5,582 nucleotides of DNA, taken from positions 1 to 5,582 of the IMG/VR virus record IMGVR_UViG_3300009507_000007; one strand, written 5' to 3'. Shown here piece after piece: positions 1,453 to 5,582 of this stretch (position 1 is its first letter; each line of letters opens with the position of its first letter). Source of the DNA: a virus. Under the pieces are notes generated by a model. The model did not search any database. It was not told the DNA's origin and worked only from the letters and a program-made list of their open reading frames with translations. The position numbers were made by a program, and so were the translations under genes.

Positions 1453-2487
1453 ATGTGCATAGCACCAGTAAAATTAGATGATGGGACGGAAGTTGGGTGT
1501 CGCGAATGCTGGCAATGCCGCAAACGTAGAGTTAACGATTACGTTGGAAGATGCATTGCCGAAAGTAAGTTTTCGAAAAAAACTTACGCTGTAACATTAA
1601 CGTATAACGGAGACCAAGGCGTTAATGCAGTAACGTTAATTTATAAAGACGTTCAGGATTTTCTTAAAAGACTGCGTAAAAAACATAAATGTCGTTACAT
1701 CGTTACCGGAGAATACGGTAGCGCAAAAGGACGCTCACATTGGCATATAATACTATTCTTTAAGGATAGTTGGCCAGAAGTGACGTCAAACAAAAGGGTA
1801 GATTGGAAATATTGGAAACATGGTTTCAGTTATTTTCAAGAACCGGATTGGAAAGGTTTTGAATATTGCCTGAAATATGTTCTGAAAGATCAGACATCAA
1901 GGCAAAGTGATAGCCATTTGGCTATGAGCAAAAAACCACCACTAGGCCACGAGTTTTTTCAACAGTTAGCGAAGCAACACGTTGAACAAGCCCTCGTCCC
2001 ACAAACATATTTTTATAAGTTTGGCGACGTAAGGGATTATAAAAACAGAGAAAAAGGGTTTATGATGCAAGGAAAAACAAGAGAAAATTTTATGGAAACT
2101 TTTGTCAAAGAGTGGGAGGATAGATACTCTCACGAACCGTTATCGGAATTAGTAACAGATTATTACGACGATATAACGGAAATAGAGTACACGGACGAAG
2201 AACTGTACGAAAGATTGCATTATCAACCTGTAAAATATGTAGAACCATGGATCGAAGGACAAGGAGACGGAATATTTAAAGATATAGAATTAGTAGAAGC
2301 AACGTATGACGGAATACCAATATGTTATTGGGATAATAAAAACAAAACAGGCATACATATAGTGACGGAGAACGACGAATGGCACGAAGAAAGACCCGAA
2401 GTAATAAAAACAATAAAACAAGGACAACAAATACAACGACGGCGATCCTACGCCGAAGTACAGTACGCGGAATTGGACGAAATATAG
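1453..2487 (+). CDS. Rolling-circle replication initiator protein (HUH endonuclease; Microviridae gene A / VP4-like), 344 aa
   Basis: N-terminal Cys cluster MCIAP...GCRECWQCRKRR. Motif I is AVTLTY. Motif II (HUH) is SHWHIILF, with HWH at 1738..1746. Motif III is the double-Tyr EYCLKYVLK (from 1864), which matches the Y-x-x-K-Y-x-x-K pattern of the phiX174 A protein active site. Confidence 0.93.
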   Translation: MCIAPVKLDDGTEVGCRECWQCRKRRVNDYVGRCIAESKFSKKTYAVTLTYNGDQGVNAVTLIYKDVQDFLKRLRKKHKCRYIVTGEYGSAKGRSHWHIILFFKDSWPEVTSNKRVDWKYWKHGFSYFQEPDWKGFEYCLKYVLKDQTSRQSDSHLAMSKKPPLGHEFFQQLAKQHVEQALVPQTYFYKFGDVRDYKNREKGFMMQGKTRENFMETFVKEWEDRYSHEPLSELVTDYYDDITEIEYTDEELYERLHYQPVKYVEPWIEGQGDGIFKDIELVEATYDGIPICYWDNKNKTGIHIVTENDEWHEERPEVIKTIKQGQQIQRRRSYAEVQYAELDEI

Positions 2488-2681
2488 AAATATATAGTCC
2501 ACCCGATGAACAACGGGAGCGAACAGCCGCACCACCTCCCGAACGGGATCTAGCGAAGCGGAAAAAATCCCCGAAAAACTTTACGGTCAGAGATCTGCGG
2601 ATAAGGTGTAAGGACAGACCCAAAAAAAACACCCCTACTGGGGGATCAGGGTCTAAAAAAACATTTGTACCTTGGTGTTAA
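2379..2681 (+). CDS. Candidate overlapping gene: highly basic, low-complexity 100-aa protein (possible DNA-binding or packaging protein); uncertain
   Basis: ATG at 2379 has GGAG (2367..2370) 8 nt upstream. It overlaps the last 109 nt of Rep in a different frame and then occupies the otherwise unassigned 2488..2681. By hand count it has about 28 K/R and about 8 D/E. Caveat: this stretch is T-poor, so long stop-free frames arise by composition alone. Confidence 0.4.
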   Translation: MARRKTRSNKNNKTRTTNTTTAILRRSTVRGIGRNIEIYSPPDEQRERTAAPPPERDLAKRKKSPKNFTVRDLRIRCKDRPKKNTPTGGSGSKKTFVPWC

Positions 2682-2842: not shown

Positions 2843-3022
2843 TTGCAATTACTACTAATTAAACAAATTCTAAAACCGATTATCACTAGATGTGGTACTA
2901 TGCTTGGCGCTTCGCTTGCGGGCGCAGGAATAGCAGTTGGTACAACTGAAAGTATCGTTTTGGGATTTACCGCTTTAGCGGGAGTATCGATAGACCTCAT
3001 AACACGGAGGTGGATCAAATGA
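2843..3022 (+). CDS. Unlisted small hydrophobic protein, 59 aa, TTG start; candidate holin-like membrane protein
   Basis: A perfect AAGGAG (2831..2836) lies 6 nt upstream of TTG 2843, and an in-frame TAA precedes at 2837..2839. Translation: (M)QLLLIKQILKPIITRCGTMLGASLAGAGIAVGTTESIVLGFTALAGVSIDLITRRWIK. It has two Gly/Ala-rich hydrophobic stretches and a positively charged C-terminus. The stop TGA (3020..3022) overlaps the next ATG as ATGA. At 59 aa it is one residue below the track cutoff. Confidence 0.55.
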   Translation: MQLLLIKQILKPIITRCGTMLGASLAGAGIAVGTTESIVLGFTALAGVSIDLITRRWIK

Positions 3023-3114
3023 AATTAAAAGACATCATAATAGCAACGATAGCGGGAATAGTAATGGGTTTAGCCCTATTCTCGGATACATTGTTAAATG
3101 CGGGAGTTATATAA
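3019..3114 (+). CDS. Unlisted small single-pass membrane protein, 31 aa
   Basis: GGAGGTG (3006..3012) lies 6 nt upstream of ATG 3019. Translation: MKLKDIIIATIAGIVMGLALFSDTLLNAGVI, with a charged N-terminus followed by a ~17-residue hydrophobic helix. The start overlaps the upstream stop (ATGA), and the stop TAA (3112..3114) is 1 nt before the ATG at 3116. Confidence 0.55.
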   Translation: MKLKDIIIATIAGIVMGLALFSDTLLNAGVI

Positions 3115-3115
3115 T

Positions 3116-3946
3116 ATGTGGGGAGCAATAGCCACAGCGGCAATAGGCGCATTAGGCGCACGCAAAACAGCAAAAGCTATGCAAGGAGCAAATGATTTAG
3201 ATTTAGCTAAATTAAGACGCGAAGCAGAGCAAAATGGGTTTAACCCATTAACAGTACTACGAGCAACAGGCGGTCAAGGTAGTACAAAAGGCCCATCTGG
3301 CAATTTAGCCAGTGGGGCATTTTTTCAAACATTTGCACAAGGAATACCAAGTATACTTGAATCAAATTACAATAAAAAAATGAAACAAGCACAGCTTGCA
3401 AATGTTAACGCAAGTACAGAAAATTTGTTAGCAAGTGCAAAATCAATGTCAGGACAAAGTTCTGCAAACGATTTTATTGAAAAACATGCAGTACCAATGT
3501 TAGTTCCAATCACAACAGGTGGTATGGAAGGTAAGCAAAAAGTACTATATATGGGTATAAACCCAGAATTAATGGAAACCCAATTAAGCGAAGCAATGGG
3601 TTCAATGATAGTACAGGGTTTACAATATTCATATCAAAATGGTGTACCTGCATCTGGTTTTACAAAATTAATAAAGGGGTTACCCCCTGCCCTAAAAAAA
3701 TCATTAAACAATATTATGGGTGAATTTGAAAAAACAGGAAAAATACCAACACAGGCACAAATTACAAAAGCATTAGCATCTGAATTTACTGGCCAACAGT
3801 TAGACAGATCGTTGCAACAATTTGAGGCATTAATTGGACACCAACGTAAGAAACCAAAGTTGGAAAGTGAACCTGATTACTACAGTAAAATATCAGGTGT
3901 GCCAATAAATCAGCAACAAAAAATTATGGAAGAATTATTTCCATAA
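3116..3946 (+). CDS. DNA pilot / minor capsid protein (Microviridae VP2 / gene H-like), 276 aa from ATG 3116 (track start 3098 is an alternative)
   Basis: The N-terminus MWGAIATAAIGALGARK is Gly/Ala-rich and hydrophobic. It is followed by AKLRREAEQNGFNPLTVL, which resembles the AGLNPML-type segment I recall from gokushovirus VP2 proteins. Size and position next to the capsid gene also fit. GGGAG (3102..3106) lies 9 nt upstream of ATG 3116, whereas ATG 3098 has no SD and lies inside the 31-aa ORF. Confidence 0.72.
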   Translation: MWGAIATAAIGALGARKTAKAMQGANDLDLAKLRREAEQNGFNPLTVLRATGGQGSTKGPSGNLASGAFFQTFAQGIPSILESNYNKKMKQAQLANVNASTENLLASAKSMSGQSSANDFIEKHAVPMLVPITTGGMEGKQKVLYMGINPELMETQLSEAMGSMIVQGLQYSYQNGVPASGFTKLIKGLPPALKKSLNNIMGEFEKTGKIPTQAQITKALASEFTGQQLDRSLQQFEALIGHQRKKPKLESEPDYYSKISGVPINQQQKIMEELFP

Positions 3947-4014
3947 TGTGCGCCAAGTGTAAAAAAATACGAAAAATTATAACTAAAATCATTGCAAGGA
4001 GAAAACGCAAATGA
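3946..4014 (+). CDS. Unlisted 22-aa extremely basic micro-ORF (MCAKCKKIRKIITKIIARRKRK); candidate J-like DNA-binding/packaging peptide
   Basis: The ATG 3946..3948 overlaps the pilot stop TAA 3944..3946 (TAATG). Its stop TGA 4012..4014 overlaps the capsid ATG 4011..4013 (ATGA). It exactly fills the pilot-capsid spacer. It has 11 of 22 residues K/R, no acidic residues and a CxxC motif. Its position immediately upstream of the capsid gene mirrors phiX174 gene J upstream of gene F. Confidence 0.55.
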   Translation: MCAKCKKIRKIITKIIARRKRK

Positions 4015-5582
4015 GAATGACTGAACTAATACCAAACAGCCCGATTGCTGTACAGAAATCGCGCCGATCTGCAAAAGGTCGAGTATTGACGTCAGGCGAT
4101 GCAGGAAAAATCCTGCCGTTGAAATACGAATGGCTACACCGTGAAGACGGCGTGCAAAGCGGTAAAATCCGCATGAACGTTGAAATGATGGAAACATCAG
4201 AAATGTTAATGAATGGTGTTGGCGTAACATTGTACGCTCATTTCGTCCCAATGTTAGCATTTGATCGTTTTAACGGATCAATGGACGAATTAAACCGATC
4301 ATATAAAAAAGAAAATGGCGCAGCAGGATCTATAGTACCATTTTTTGAAAGTAATAAGGCTTATTATGAACCTACAGGTAGCGTTTCAAATAATAGTCCG
4401 GGATACGCTCAAATGTATGATACAAATGACGATCACAAGACAAAAACTTTTTATCAAACAATGGGTATTCATACTGAAGCAACATCTTTTAATTCAACAA
4501 TAGTTGAAGCATATAATACAATTGTTAATCATAGACGCAAGGCACGATCAAAATCGTTACCATTAAGAAACGTATTTGATCATAGTTTAGCCGACGCGTT
4601 TTGGATTAATAATGGAATGCAAAATATTGTTCCAGATTATGATCAAAATTTAATTGACGGACAAGTTACACTTGCCGGACTTACATTTCAGGCACCAATT
4701 AAAGCACCTAAATATTTAAGTGATTCAGGTTGGGGTACAGCAACAAATAATGATGCTGTATCAGGAAATGCAATATCACCAGGTATGACTGCTTCAGACG
4801 TAGTAGATCAAGGTGATATGTATTTATTTGATGAAATGTACGCTGAATTAACTACTGGCGGGAACGCAACAATGTCATTAGCTGACATTGAACAAGCACG
4901 TAAAACAGCGGCCTTTGCTAAGTTAAGAGCAAAGTATGATGGTATTGACGACGAACACGTAATTGATTTGCTTATGTCAGGAATTAGAGTTCCTGAAGAG
5001 GCATTAAAGCAACCAATATTATTGGGTCGTCAACGTGCAATGATAGGATTTAACCAACGTTATGCCACAGATGGCGCAAACTTGGATAAGTCAGCAACAA
5101 ATGGTATGGCAACAATTGACATGTCAATTAGAACACCAGCTATGAATACTGGCGGCGTTATAATGATAACTGCCGAAATAGTGCCAGAACAACTTTGGGA
5201 ACGTAAGAAAGATTATTTCTTATATACAACAGATCCAGATACGTTACCAAACTATCTTTCTGATGTATTAGACCCAGAAAAAGTGTCAGTTGTAAAAAAT
5301 GACCACGCTGACGTAAATCACGCAACACCAGATGGAACATTTGGTTATGCACCACTTAACCACCAATGGCAAAGAGATGCGGTAAATGTAGGTGGTAAAT
5401 ATTACCGTCCTGCAAATGACGCATTTGATGAAGACCGTGCAAAAATTTGGACGGCTGAATCAACAAACCCAACGCTAAATGAAGACTTTTATTTATGTTC
5501 AGGTTTGCACAAAAAAGTATTTGCCGATCAAATATCAGACAGTTTTGAAATTACATGTCTTACAGATATGTCGATTGTAGGA
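4011..5582 (+). CDS. Major capsid protein (Microviridae F / VP1-like), 5' portion; runs off the window end and continues at position 124 via the circular junction (555 aa total)
   Basis: AAGGAG (3996..4001) lies 9 nt upstream of ATG 4011. The frame is open to the window end, verified by hand translation. It is the largest gene of the genome. The N-terminal pattern G-K-I-L-P-L ... YAHFVPMLAF parallels the G-x-L-x-P ... F-x-VP-x-R arrangement near the N-terminus of microvirus capsid proteins. It is absent from the ORF track only because it has no in-window stop. Confidence 0.85.
   Translation, partial: MRMTELIPNSPIAVQKSRRSAKGRVLTSGDAGKILPLKYEWLHREDGVQSGKIRMNVEMMETSEMLMNGVGVTLYAHFVPMLAFDRFNGSMDELNRSYKKENGAAGSIVPFFESNKAYYEPTGSVSNNSPGYAQMYDTNDDHKTKTFYQTMGIHTEATSFNSTIVEAYNTIVNHRRKARSKSLPLRNVFDHSLADAFWINNGMQNIVPDYDQNLIDGQVTLAGLTFQAPIKAPKYLSDSGWGTATNNDAVSGNAISPGMTASDVVDQGDMYLFDEMYAELTTGGNATMSLADIEQARKTAAFAKLRAKYDGIDDEHVIDLLMSGIRVPEEALKQPILLGRQRAMIGFNQRYATDGANLDKSATNGMATIDMSIRTPAMNTGGVIMITAEIVPEQLWERKKDYFLYTTDPDTLPNYLSDVLDPEKVSVVKNDHADVNHATPDGTFGYAPLNHQWQRDAVNVGGKYYRPANDAFDEDRAKIWTAESTNPTLNEDFYLCSGLHKKVFADQISDSFEITCLTDMSIVG
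5460..5582. repeat. Terminal redundancy (copy 2), identical to 1..123
   Basis: Same comparison. Position 5460 is a codon start of the capsid ORF and position 1 continues the same frame. Confidence 0.97.

Follow-up and report, generated by a model that had tools for sequence, protein, structure and literature searches.

Introduction

The peptide analysed here resembles the small basic proteins J and VP8 of other microviruses in size, charge and gene position. These proteins are 25–40 aa long and rich in lysine and arginine (PMC3091885), and a hydrophobic or aromatic C-terminus anchors them in a pocket of the capsid (PMC11281519, PMC9865509). VP8 has been built into the cryo-EM maps of SpV4 and phiEC6098 (PMC11281519), and in enterobacterial gokushoviruses its gene directly follows the pilot gene VP2 (PMC7062461). 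A further basic protein, Gp10, was detected by mass spectrometry in virions of the related alphaproteobacterial microvirus Ebor, where only the capsid protein, the pilot protein and Gp10 were found, and it has been proposed to mitigate DNA charge (PMC11980548). A sequence-only reading of the present locus had stated that microviruses other than phiX174 generally lack an identified J equivalent. With VP8 in cryo-EM maps and Gp10 in Ebor virions, that statement is outdated. The same reading had proposed that a very small ORF between the pilot and capsid genes encodes an analogue of J, and this micro-gene is the subject of the present analysis.

Genomic context and layout of the micro-gene

The window, i.e., the whole stretch of DNA that was analysed (5,582 nt, IMG/VR record IMGVR_UViG_3300009507_000007), represents a circular genome of 5459 nt from a marine ssDNA phage, a microvirus of the 'Occultatumvirinae'/Family 7. 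Microviruses of this group are abundant in the oceans. The DNA pilot protein gene (VP2/H-like, 282 aa) occupies positions 3098–3946 on the plus strand. It was recognised from its ORF and from the motif AE..GFNPLT, which it has in common with Ebor Gp3, and its homologues in the CRPss phages have been named VP2 (PMC11499846). The major capsid protein gene (VP1/F-like, 555 aa) was identified by homology at 4011–5582 on the plus strand. Its product is 75–77% identical (tblastn) to the major capsid proteins annotated in Roseobacter phages CRPss-151 to -155. The gene crosses the 123-nt terminal repeat of the window, and its end corresponds to window position 219 on the circular genome. A second in-frame ATG follows at 4017, but the capsid start is the one at 4011, which is conserved among relatives (ATGAGA nearly throughout).

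The micro-gene fills the space between these two genes. It consists of 22 codons and a stop at 3946–4014 on the plus strand, and its product, MCAKCKKIRKIITKIIARRKRK, has a mass of 2.69 kDa, a pI of 11.6 and a net charge of +11. At its 5' end, the plus-strand sequence TAATG (3944–3948) joins the pilot stop TAA (3944–3946) to the micro-gene ATG (3946–3948) through one common base. At its 3' end, the plus-strand sequence ATGA (4011–4014) joins the capsid ATG (4011–4013) to the micro-gene stop TGA (4012–4014). The spacer of 64 nt between the pilot and capsid genes (3947–4010) is therefore bridged exactly, as the sequence-only reading had described. Its account of the peptide was likewise accurate: the translation contains seven K, four R, no D or E, and a CxxC motif at residues 2–5. 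There are also five I, and the C-terminus (...ARRKRK) belongs to a peptide that contains no F, W, Y or L. The AAGGAG Shine-Dalgarno (SD) sequence of the capsid gene (3996–4001, plus strand) lies within the A-R-R codons of the micro-gene, so that these nucleotides have a dual use.

Such an arrangement had been called unlikely to arise by chance. It is indeed rare, as composition-preserving shuffles of the spacer gave an ORF that bridges it exactly from overlap to overlap in 984 of 200,000 cases (0.5%), or in 1.9% under relaxed start rules. Shuffles alone do not decide the matter: the bridging ORF by itself is unusual and not decisive, and it is the comparative data that settle the question.

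A minus-strand ORF at 3910–4260 (116 aa) was rejected as a gene, as its product is F/S-rich junk and the genes of these genomes all lie on one strand. The A-rich plus strand is enough to leave minus-strand frames open across the region, as they are in 24 of 27 variants.

Conservation among relatives

The first comparison set comprised the window, nine GenBank relatives and 80 IMG/VR loci, and 79 of these sequences extended far enough upstream to be assessed. The micro-ORF is intact in 78 of the 79, and distant relatives keep it too. Copies without annotation are found in isolates CRPss-151, -152, -153, -154, -155 and -251, and the corresponding micro-peptide of the CRPss phages is MACAKCKKIRNLIKKLRRKK. 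The micro-gene is retained even at 34–49% capsid identity, in microviruses from tortoise, bat and rat and in Rhizobium microviruses. These genomes are GC-rich and unrelated to the window in nucleotide sequence, and both cysteines are still invariant in them. When 19 divergent family members are aligned, the Cys-x-x-Cys cysteines (C2 and C5, encoded within 3949–3960 on the plus strand) are the sole invariant columns. Family members range from 20 to 45 aa, and all carry a net charge of +9 to +18.

The pattern of substitutions is that of a protein-coding sequence. Across 50 genomes, the pN/pS of the micro-gene is 0.33 in frame, whereas the other two frames give 1.38 and 0.68. The capsid gene of the same genomes has a pN/pS of 0.27. 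Thirteen of the 25 variable sites in the micro-gene fall at third codon positions. The micro-genes of TM24 and Flyfo83 differ at 11 of 22 codons, seven times synonymously and four times nonsynonymously. Length varies by whole codons, as exemplified by spacers of 58 nt versus 64 nt. In a scan of the pilot–capsid region the micro-gene had 94.6% identity to the sequence studied here, which ranks fourth among 2597 scanned segments. The C-terminal two-thirds of the pilot are hypervariable among relatives (identity at 3376–3903 falls to 29–43%), and the 3' end of the pilot gene next to the micro-gene cannot be aligned. We are highly confident that the micro-ORF is a real, conserved protein-coding gene and not a chance ORF. 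As judged from these genome comparisons, it is conserved across most of the phage family.

Part of this conservation has another source. The pS of the micro-gene is 0.21 versus 0.49 for the capsid gene, and this lower synonymous divergence means that some conservation acts at the nucleotide level. The K/R tail at the C-terminus may in part reflect the purine-rich sequence around the capsid SD.

The micro-gene is present in CRPss-154 and absent from the Tainavirinae (Ebor, ICBM5). Among the deep members of Family 7, some lack it as well (Ciona SD_HF_63, Flyfo Tbat2_93). Where it is absent, the pilot gene directly abuts the capsid gene. This means that the micro-gene is not indispensable to this capsid architecture. 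In genomes that lack it, neither the C-terminus of the pilot nor the N-terminus of the capsid protein was found to contain a fused form of the peptide. A fusion was seen in one contig only, L176, in which an A8 homopolymer with one extra A creates an in-frame fusion of peptide and capsid. Programmed slippage on an A7 run ahead of the capsid start would yield such a fusion, but it was rejected as a general mechanism, given that neither the window nor its clade has the run.

Further searches added few new sequences. A scan of viral contigs with the capsid of Tortoise microvirus 81 returned only two loci, and the one metagenome scan, run with a capsid profile, yielded mostly near-duplicates of IMG/VR loci. 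The sampling of deep diversity therefore rests on the 19 GenBank genomes.

Coupling to the pilot and capsid genes

The micro-gene start is tied to the end of the pilot gene throughout the family. A stop/start overlap of 1 nt (TAATG or TGATG) is found in 52 of 76 scored relatives, and in nearly all others the start lies −11 to +8 nt from the pilot stop. A TTG start within a TTGA overlap is seen in some relatives. At the other end, the ATGA overlap with the capsid gene is present in 64 of 77 relatives. Stop/start overlaps are conserved at both ends of the micro-gene.

No SD sequence was found upstream of the micro-gene in 47 of 50 distinct contexts, whereas an SD-like core precedes the capsid start in 18 of 18. 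As the micro-gene has no SD of its own and starts at the pilot stop, its output appears to be linked to the low-copy pilot and not to the 60-copy capsid protein. There are two kinds of exception. In Flyfo Tbat2_43 the micro-gene lies 95 nt from the pilot stop and has its own GAGGA SD. In ten genomes an extra small gene separates the micro-gene from the capsid gene, which then has a separate SD. The micro-gene remains intact in all ten, and in nine of them the ATG of the inserted gene takes over the same ATGA overlap.

The region gave no RNA structure signal, as it folds no better than its shuffles (z = +0.88), and it contains no plus-strand promoter or terminator and has no Rfam match. An RNA element was rejected as an explanation on these grounds.

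It is conceivable that the peptide has no function, and that the ORF is kept open only to couple the pilot and capsid genes and to place the ribosome-binding site of the capsid gene in a leader that is A-rich and unstructured. The overlaps conserved at both ends, the general lack of an SD upstream, the capsid SD inside the ORF, the unstructured RNA and the synonymous divergence below that of the capsid gene all agree with this, and purine-rich DNA in this frame would give K and R in any case. However, coupling needs no particular residues, yet the Cys pair, one Arg and the hydrophobic spacing persist despite unrelated nucleotide sequence and GC content. The difference in pN/pS between the coding frame and the other two also speaks against it, as do the persistence of the ORF where an inserted gene parts it from the capsid gene and its own SD where it is parted from the pilot stop. 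We regard a functionless peptide as very improbable.

Predicted structure and homology of the peptide

An AlphaFold2 model of a homologue (P0002) consists of one helix at residues 11–31, with a pLDDT of 88–90 over this block. The helix starts at the CxxC, which forms its N-terminal cap. The sequence-only reading had suggested an amphipathic helix. The model of the homologue supports the helix, whereas evidence for its amphipathic character is weak: the window peptide has a hydrophobic moment of 0.63, and 24% of shuffled versions of the peptide score at least as high. Across the family the moment is high in absolute terms, at 0.56–0.92, and for most members it does not differ significantly from shuffles.

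Homology searches assigned the peptide to no described family. The window peptide has no Pfam or PHROG match at E ≤ 0.01, and searches with 19 family members at E ≤ 10 found no J or VP8 family among the matches. The Pfam matches that cover the CxxC are below threshold and inconsistent with each other (zf-CW, Thioredoxin_3 and Zn_ribbon_5; E 0.035–0.14). A profile search against PDB sequences gave a chance match only (ribosomal protein S3, E 1.3), and a profile search of 5.8 billion proteins yielded only four homologues, all labelled hypothetical or unnamed. A complete zinc finger, ribbon or knuckle has four Cys/His ligands per chain. The micro-peptide has two invariant cysteines only, and the alignment of the 19 divergent members contains no further conserved Cys or His.

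These properties also fit a factor that is not packaged, i.e., a protein that binds nucleic acid or acts on the host, such as a switch from replication to packaging like phiX174 protein C, a translational regulator or a host inhibitor. A basic helix with a Cys cap would be well suited to binding DNA or RNA, low expression coupled to the pilot suits a regulatory dose, and Pfam and PHROG scans identified no C/VP5 analogue among the ORFs of this genome. On the other hand, a structural module is suggested by the location of the micro-gene within the pilot–capsid block and by its family-wide conservation, and the homology searches link it to no specific regulator beyond the sub-threshold CxxC matches. 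We consider such a factor rather unlikely.

A role in lysis is considerably less probable. A membrane-active cationic peptide could assist lysis, e.g., by disrupting the outer membrane after an M15 peptidase has acted, and the 'disruptin' gp28 of phage phiKT is a comparable lysis peptide. The micro-peptide is predicted to form a short, cationic helix that bears a stripe of Ile residues, with the family-wide hydrophobic moments given above, and the genome encodes an M15 endolysin (746–1312) and has no recognisable spanin among its ORFs in Pfam and PHROG scans. However, membrane activity leaves the invariant CxxC unexplained, and half of the residues are K or R. The distribution of the gene does not follow that of the lysis genes either: CRPss-154 carries the micro-gene and lacks the M15 peptidase, whereas Ebor and ICBM5 lack the micro-gene and both have peptidoglycan hydrolases. 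Nor is the micro-gene adjacent to the lysis gene.

The Gp10-like protein of the same genome

The genome encodes a second highly basic protein. An ORF at 2379–2681 on the plus strand, which overlaps the 3' end of the Rep gene, encodes 100 aa with 28 K/R and a pI of 11.6. It shares the C-terminal motif CK.RP..GGS..FVPWC with Ebor Gp10 (BLASTP E 2e-5) and is a homologue of that protein. Judging by sequence features, this protein is a better fit than the micro-peptide to the J/VP8 design, in which a basic N-terminus is combined with an aromatic, hydrophobic C-terminus. The virion data for Ebor say little about the micro-peptide, as Ebor lacks the gene and in-gel trypsin digestion would miss such a peptide.

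Relatives without the micro-gene still carry Gp10. The length and charge of Gp10-like proteins show no pattern of compensation for a missing micro-gene. Their cysteines do not covary with the presence of the micro-gene and are conserved in genomes without it too. Such covariation might have indicated a four-Cys site shared between a Gp10-like protein and the micro-peptide.

This bears on whether the micro-peptide is itself a true J/VP8 equivalent. As such, it would be present in about 60 copies per virion, line the capsid interior, neutralise DNA charge and guide ssDNA into the procapsid. By a rough estimate, the charge of 60 copies at +11 would offset about 12% of the 5459 phosphates, a share similar to that for J in phiX174. 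The micro-gene is also conserved like a core gene, and its product matches J and VP8 in size, basicity and position in the structural block (PMC3091885, PMC7062461). It differs from them in having no hydrophobic or aromatic anchor at the C-terminus (PMC11281519, PMC9865509), and it has no sequence similarity to them and no match to a J profile. Initiation without an SD depends on the low-copy pilot, which argues indirectly against a dosage of 60 copies. Furthermore, a protein of J-like design is already encoded in the same genome by the Gp10 homologue, Gp10 is the basic protein of Ebor virions, and it persists where the micro-gene does not. A true J/VP8 equivalent is therefore unlikely. The proposed analogy to J is partly supported, i.e., it holds for size, charge and position and falters on the anchor, the similarity, the SD and the Gp10 homologue, and the micro-peptide is not clearly the counterpart of phiX174 J.

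Proposed role of the micro-peptide

The explanation that we favour, tentatively, is that the micro-gene encodes a candidate accessory nucleic-acid-binding microprotein of the structural or assembly module, with a dosage linked to the pilot. Ribosomes that end the pilot gene would reinitiate at the overlapping micro-gene ATG, since the micro-gene has no SD of its own. They would translate 22 codons and then terminate on the capsid ATG, while the 3' codons of the micro-gene would double as the capsid ribosome-binding site. The product would be a single short helix with the invariant Cys-x-x-Cys as a cap at its N-terminus and a Lys/Arg tail. It probably binds nucleic acid, and its K/R residues would contact ssDNA. 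The hydrophobic stripe and the Cys pair could dock the peptide or cross-link it via a shared metal ion or a disulfide, as a complete zinc site requires more than two cysteines. Made in pilot-linked amounts, the peptide would act beside the Gp10-like protein and not as a 60-copy J equivalent. We infer a structural, DNA-binding role from the position between pilot and capsid, the charge of +9 to +18, the predicted helix and the likeness to J/VP8.

A more specific and more doubtful version of this explanation is that the micro-peptides form an unrecognised class of structural microproteins in Family 7/Occultatumvirinae. They would be Cys-capped cationic helices of 20–45 aa that are packaged with the pilot–DNA complex, as a second DNA-binding component of the virion that is distinct from J, VP8 and Gp10. 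The peptide may then be dimerised or tethered by a shared zinc ion or disulfide, and its synthesis may depend on pilot translation. If so, the packaged microprotein could have a role in genome packaging or ejection. A lineage with two different basic internal proteins would also bear on how ssDNA is condensed and handed over to the pilot in T=1 capsids.

Published annotations of CRPss-151 to -155, CRPss-251 and the Rhizobium microviruses contain no gene at the pilot–capsid junction, and almost all annotations miss the micro-gene because gene callers discard ORFs this short. A microvirus has six to ten genes, so that a single conserved gene that goes unnoticed makes up a large share of the proteome. 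The micro-gene is among the most conserved stretches of the pilot–capsid region and could thus serve as a marker for the family, and its high conservation implies that it must be preserved in synthetic or engineered genomes. As hosts and isolates exist, the function of the micro-peptide is directly testable.

Comparison with known systems

Protein J of phiX174, G4 and alpha3 (Bullavirinae) resembles the micro-peptide in being tiny, K/R-rich and free of acidic residues, and in being encoded just upstream of the capsid gene. The N-terminus of J is basic, and its hydrophobic or aromatic C-terminus is buried in the capsid (PMC11281519), whereas the order in the micro-peptide is reversed, with the Cys pair first, then the helix and then the basic C-terminus, and with no aromatic residue. 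The micro-peptide also differs from J in sequence, in the lack of a Pfam match and in the lack of an SD for its gene. J is not known to have conserved cysteines.

VP8 of the Gokushovirinae (SpV4, phiEC6098, Chp2) is likewise small and rich in Arg and Lys, and in enterobacterial gokushoviruses its gene has the same place after the pilot gene. It lines the capsid interior, and its C-terminal residue is aromatic and buried (Phe38 in SpV4) (PMC11281519), an end that the micro-peptide does not have. Profile scans with the 19 family members detected no similarity between VP8 and the micro-peptide.

Half-site zinc motifs offer a structural analogy only. In the Rad50 zinc hook, two chains share one metal site via their CxxC pairs. 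As in this hook and in zinc knuckles, the CxxC of the micro-peptide lies at the N-terminal end of a helix. The micro-peptide has no conserved second pair of ligands in cis, and a single CxxC pair cannot supply the four ligands of a zinc ion, so that a putative metal site would have to be shared by two chains.

The Gp10-like proteins of Tainavirinae and Family 7 belong to the same viral lineage as the micro-peptide. Both are highly basic (the pI of Gp10-like proteins is about 11.5), and both have exactly two conserved cysteines. The Gp10-like proteins comprise 100–185 aa, overlap the 3' end of Rep and carry the motif CK.RP..GGS..F(V/I)PWC, whereas the micro-peptides comprise 20–45 aa, are encoded between pilot and capsid and lack this motif. 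The micro-peptides thus constitute a separate gene family that coexists with Gp10.

Genome organisation and the micro-ORF

The ends of the window carry an exact direct repeat of 123 nt (1–123 and 5460–5582), and the window is thus a circular assembly with a genome of 5459 nt. All genes are encoded on the + strand: an unknown protein of 174 aa (274–798), an M15 peptidase (endolysin, 746–1312), Rep (1453–2487), a basic ORF of 100 aa that overlaps the Rep 3′ end (2379–2681), two small hydrophobic ORFs, the VP2/H-like pilot protein (3098–3946), the micro-ORF (3946–4014) and the major capsid protein (555 aa, from 4011 across the repeat junction to 219). The hydrophobic ORFs lie just 5′ of the pilot gene and likely encode membrane proteins. 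The first (59 aa, 2843–3022) has a TTG start and an AAGGAG Shine-Dalgarno (SD) site and is homologous to a 61-aa hypothetical protein of the CRPss Roseobacter phages; the second (~31 aa, ~3020–3114) has a GGAGG SD site and overlaps the pilot start. The AT-rich region 3′ of the basic ORF (2682–2842) contains no long ORF and is the largest non-coding region; it is a candidate site of a promoter or origin. Searches of Pfam and PHROG gave no match for the capsid protein, which is 75–77% identical to the annotated capsids of Roseobacter phages CRPss-151, -152, -153 and -155, and 34–49% identical to those of CRPss-251, CRPss-154 and tortoise, bat, rat, Ciona and Rhizobium microviruses. This group is referred to as 'Occultatumvirinae' or Family 7 (PMC11499846).

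As described in the sequence-only reading, the micro-ORF bridges the 64-nt spacer between the pilot and capsid genes, overlapping the pilot stop in TAATG (3944–3948) and the capsid start in ATGA (4011–4014), and its product MCAKCKKIRKIITKIIARRKRK contains seven K, four R and no D or E. The capsid SD AAGGAG (3996–4001) sits within it. That reading also considered such bridging unlikely to arise by chance. Composition-preserving shuffling of the spacer gave an exact overlap-to-overlap ORF in 0.5% of cases, or 1.9% with relaxed start rules, which is suggestive but insufficient by itself. A minus-strand ORF that covers the entire micro-gene (3910–4260, 116 aa) was rejected as an artefact, as the A-rich + strand alone opens minus-strand frames in most relatives.

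Conservation of the micro-ORF

The four closest isolates, with ~70% nucleotide identity to the window, contain an unannotated ORF at the junction, MACAKCKKIRNLIKK(L/I)(R/G)RKK, that differs in length from the micro-ORF by exactly two codons and, within a spacer of 58 nt, keeps both overlaps, TAATG and ATGA. Our first set combined the window with 9 GenBank genomes and 80 IMG/VR loci, 90 sequences in total, 11 of which had too little upstream sequence to be assessed. The micro-ORF was intact in 78 of the 79 assessable sequences. A 1-nt overlap with the pilot stop was present in 52/76 scored relatives, and an overlap with the capsid ATG in 64/77. In the exception, L010 (about 63–128), TGT at Cys5 is replaced by TGA. 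A separate locus, L176 (about 40–108), has eight rather than seven A before the capsid ATG, which creates an in-frame fusion of micro-gene and capsid, MCSKCKKIRQIIKKIIGRRKKTMRVTE... Both could be homopolymer or assembly errors or real variants.

The 22-codon form occurred in 57 loci as 19 distinct nucleotide sequences. Third codon positions accounted for 13 of its 25 variable sites, with silent changes including CGA/AGA, AAA/AAG, ATT/ATA and ACT/ACC, while amino-acid replacements were concentrated at residues 3–4 or were exchanges between K and R. In frame, pN/pS of the micro-ORF was 0.32–0.33, a noisy value as it rests on a 21-codon region, compared to 1.38 and 0.68 in the remaining two frames of the same DNA and 0.27 for the capsid gene in the same 50 genomes. 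In a pilot-micro-ORF-capsid alignment of 36 relatives, the micro-ORF was 94.6% identical to the window and ranked 4th among 2597 segments of 69 nt; the pilot region directly upstream (3376–3903) was 29–43% identical and effectively unalignable. This hypervariable region, the C-terminal two-thirds of the pilot protein, is flanked on both sides by sharply conserved DNA in otherwise close relatives, which suggests modular exchange or diversifying selection. We consider it very probable that the micro-ORF is a real, translated gene whose peptide is under selection. An ORF that serves only for coupling, with a non-functional peptide, is the least probable of the readings we weighed, as conservation is seen at the peptide level.

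Junction peptides of the same design were found at 34–49% capsid identity, where the DNA itself is unrelated and in many cases rich in GC. They include MCKRCQKIRKIVKRILTRKSWKAKRKNKRF in CRPss-251, MPRCKKCAARRKAVKRVLSRLLKRKAKK, MVKRKTPCRACRAARSVIRAIVRKVKPKVK, MKRRPCKACARRRAAISRLWKKVRRK and MRNRCSKCAAIRASIGRKVARILKMKGN in Tortoise microviruses 70, 81, 71 and 37, respectively, ..VKC(A/D)AC(A/T)RRRENIK.AAIKV.R...KGKK in Rhizobium RHph_TM24 and Flyfo 83, and MAVKKCIACRPAKRAVKYGVRMVRTLLNRRKKHYGK in Rhizobium RHph_X92. The TM24 and Flyfo83 micro-genes differ in 11/22 codons, 7 of these 11 silently. Across 19 aligned divergent members, only the columns of the two cysteines are invariant, and Arg is found four residues past the second Cys in at least 70%. 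Judging from these sequences, a CxxC in every independent short ORF of the deep relatives cannot be a compositional accident. This deep sampling consists of 19 GenBank genomes; large scans yielded mostly close marine relatives, with overlap between the metagenome and IMG/VR sets. No relatives of the micro-peptide were found in Pfam, PHROG or PDB. Ciona Microviridae sp. SD_HF_68 (L101), which lacks a micro-gene between pilot and capsid, contains a 45-aa ORF that resembles the family (MKALTHTGPCAKCAKMRRKIRKATRLLAKR..., 18 K/R, 0 D/E) within the pilot gene in a different frame (4755–4892).

AlphaFold2 predicted a single helix for a 37-aa homologue (residues 11–31, block pLDDT 88–90), beginning at the CxxC and followed by a disordered basic tail, from a shallow family alignment of only five sequences. 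The amphipathic helix proposed earlier is compatible with the data but is not demonstrated: hydrophobic moments are 0.56–0.92 across the family, and in most members no greater than in same-residue shuffles (window peptide p ~0.24).

Translation and junction architecture

In nearly all scored relatives the micro-ORF starts −11 to +8 nt from the pilot stop, with a TTG start in a TTGA overlap in 4/76. An SD core was present upstream of the capsid in 18/18 distinct contexts, and none was found upstream of the micro-ORF in 47/50. From this pattern, the micro-ORF is likely translated by termination-reinitiation following the pilot gene. In Flyfo Tbat2_43, the sole GenBank record found with the micro-gene annotated (as a hypothetical protein), 95 nt separate it from the pilot stop, and it has its own GAGGA.

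Ten genomes contain a small extra gene between the micro-ORF and the capsid. As the micro-ORF is intact and the capsid has a separate SD in all ten, the micro-ORF is more than a capsid leader. The ATGA overlap is taken by the ATG of the inserted gene in nine of them, CRPss-251 being the exception. Inserts measure ~186 nt in L060 and L082 and ~122–125 nt in L062, L072, L079, L080 and L089, and also occur in L078 and L005 (CRPss-251). Several encode acidic products, e.g., ..WDEEQPENIKDWLTNLLENYGT, and in CRPss-251 an annotated acidic ORF (2712–2849) overlaps the unannotated micro-gene in a different frame. In CRPss-151 (L004), an extra annotated ORF (2567–2725) duplicates part of the capsid N-terminus and is followed by a copy of the micro-gene 3′ end with the capsid SD, so that 2567–2755 is a tandem junction duplication.

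Synonymous divergence was 0.21 in the micro-ORF versus 0.49 in the capsid, which fits 3′ codons that double as the ribosome-binding site of the next gene. None of the RNA structures, promoters, terminators or Rfam families searched for accounts for the micro-ORF region.

A second basic protein and the possible role of the micro-peptide

In Ebor, a related alphaproteobacterial microvirus (Tainavirinae), mass spectrometry of virions detected a single basic protein, Gp10, whose gene overlaps the 3′ end of Rep and for which a VP8/J-like action has been proposed (PMC11980548). The basic ORF of the window (2379–2681) is a Gp10 homologue (BLASTP E 2e-5), ending in ...RCKDRPKKNTPTGGSGSKKTFVPWC compared to ...HCKMRPMDHSSKGGGSRPFVPWC in Ebor; it has exactly two conserved cysteines and CK.RP..GGS..FVPWC as its C-terminal motif. 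Gp10-like proteins, with a basic N-terminus and an FVPWC end, are conserved in 14/16 scanned Family 7 genomes and in the tainavirus ICBM5. Some CRPss records annotate it only as hypothetical, and it was left out of the CRPss-155 annotation. Ebor and ICBM5 have no micro-gene, and neither do Ciona SD_HF_63 and Flyfo Tbat2_93, in which the pilot and capsid genes abut; all four retain Gp10. The Ebor virion proteomics are uninformative on the micro-peptide, because this phage does not carry the gene and a K/R peptide of 22 residues would escape detection after in-gel trypsin digestion.

Based on the position and composition of the micro-peptide, its coupling and its predicted structure, we tentatively favour an accessory role: it may bind nucleic acid as part of the structural and assembly module, would be made in pilot-linked amounts and would act alongside the Gp10-like protein. 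Its Cys pair could form an inter-chain metal or disulfide linkage, because a full zinc site is impossible with two cysteines. A non-structural nucleic-acid-binding or host-directed factor seems unlikely. A membrane-active lysis helper is very unlikely, as the presence of the micro-gene is uncorrelated with lysis genes and the CxxC would be left unexplained.

Small DNA-binding or basic proteins are mentioned in neither the CRPss nor the ICBM5 paper, VP8 appears in the Family 7 classification paper for other groups only, and the isolates' gene tables omit the micro-gene. We rate its product as a small basic protein encoded in the structural block of microviruses; its sequence family is undescribed and has a distinct Cys-capped layout.

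Comparison with J and VP8

The sequence-only reading proposed an analogue of the phiX174 basic protein J, on the premise that other microviruses generally lack a confidently identified J equivalent. That premise is outdated, as the cryo-EM models of SpV4 and phiEC6098 include the gokushovirus basic protein VP8 (PMC11281519). Size, charge, absence of acidic residues and position do match J. However, Gp10 is the basic virion protein in Ebor, has a homologue in the window genome and is kept where the micro-gene is missing. Moreover, SD-less, pilot-coupled initiation argues for a pilot-like rather than capsid-like dosage, a stoichiometry read solely from translation signals. A true J equivalent, at 60 copies, is therefore quite improbable, somewhat more so than the non-structural factor. 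Like J, the micro-gene is placed before the capsid gene, and like VP8 of enterobacterial gokushoviruses it is placed after the pilot gene (PMC7062461). J and VP8 are characterised by a basic N-terminus and a capsid-buried hydrophobic or aromatic C-terminus (PMC11281519; PMC9865509), whereas the micro-peptide is free of aromatic residues and has the opposite layout.
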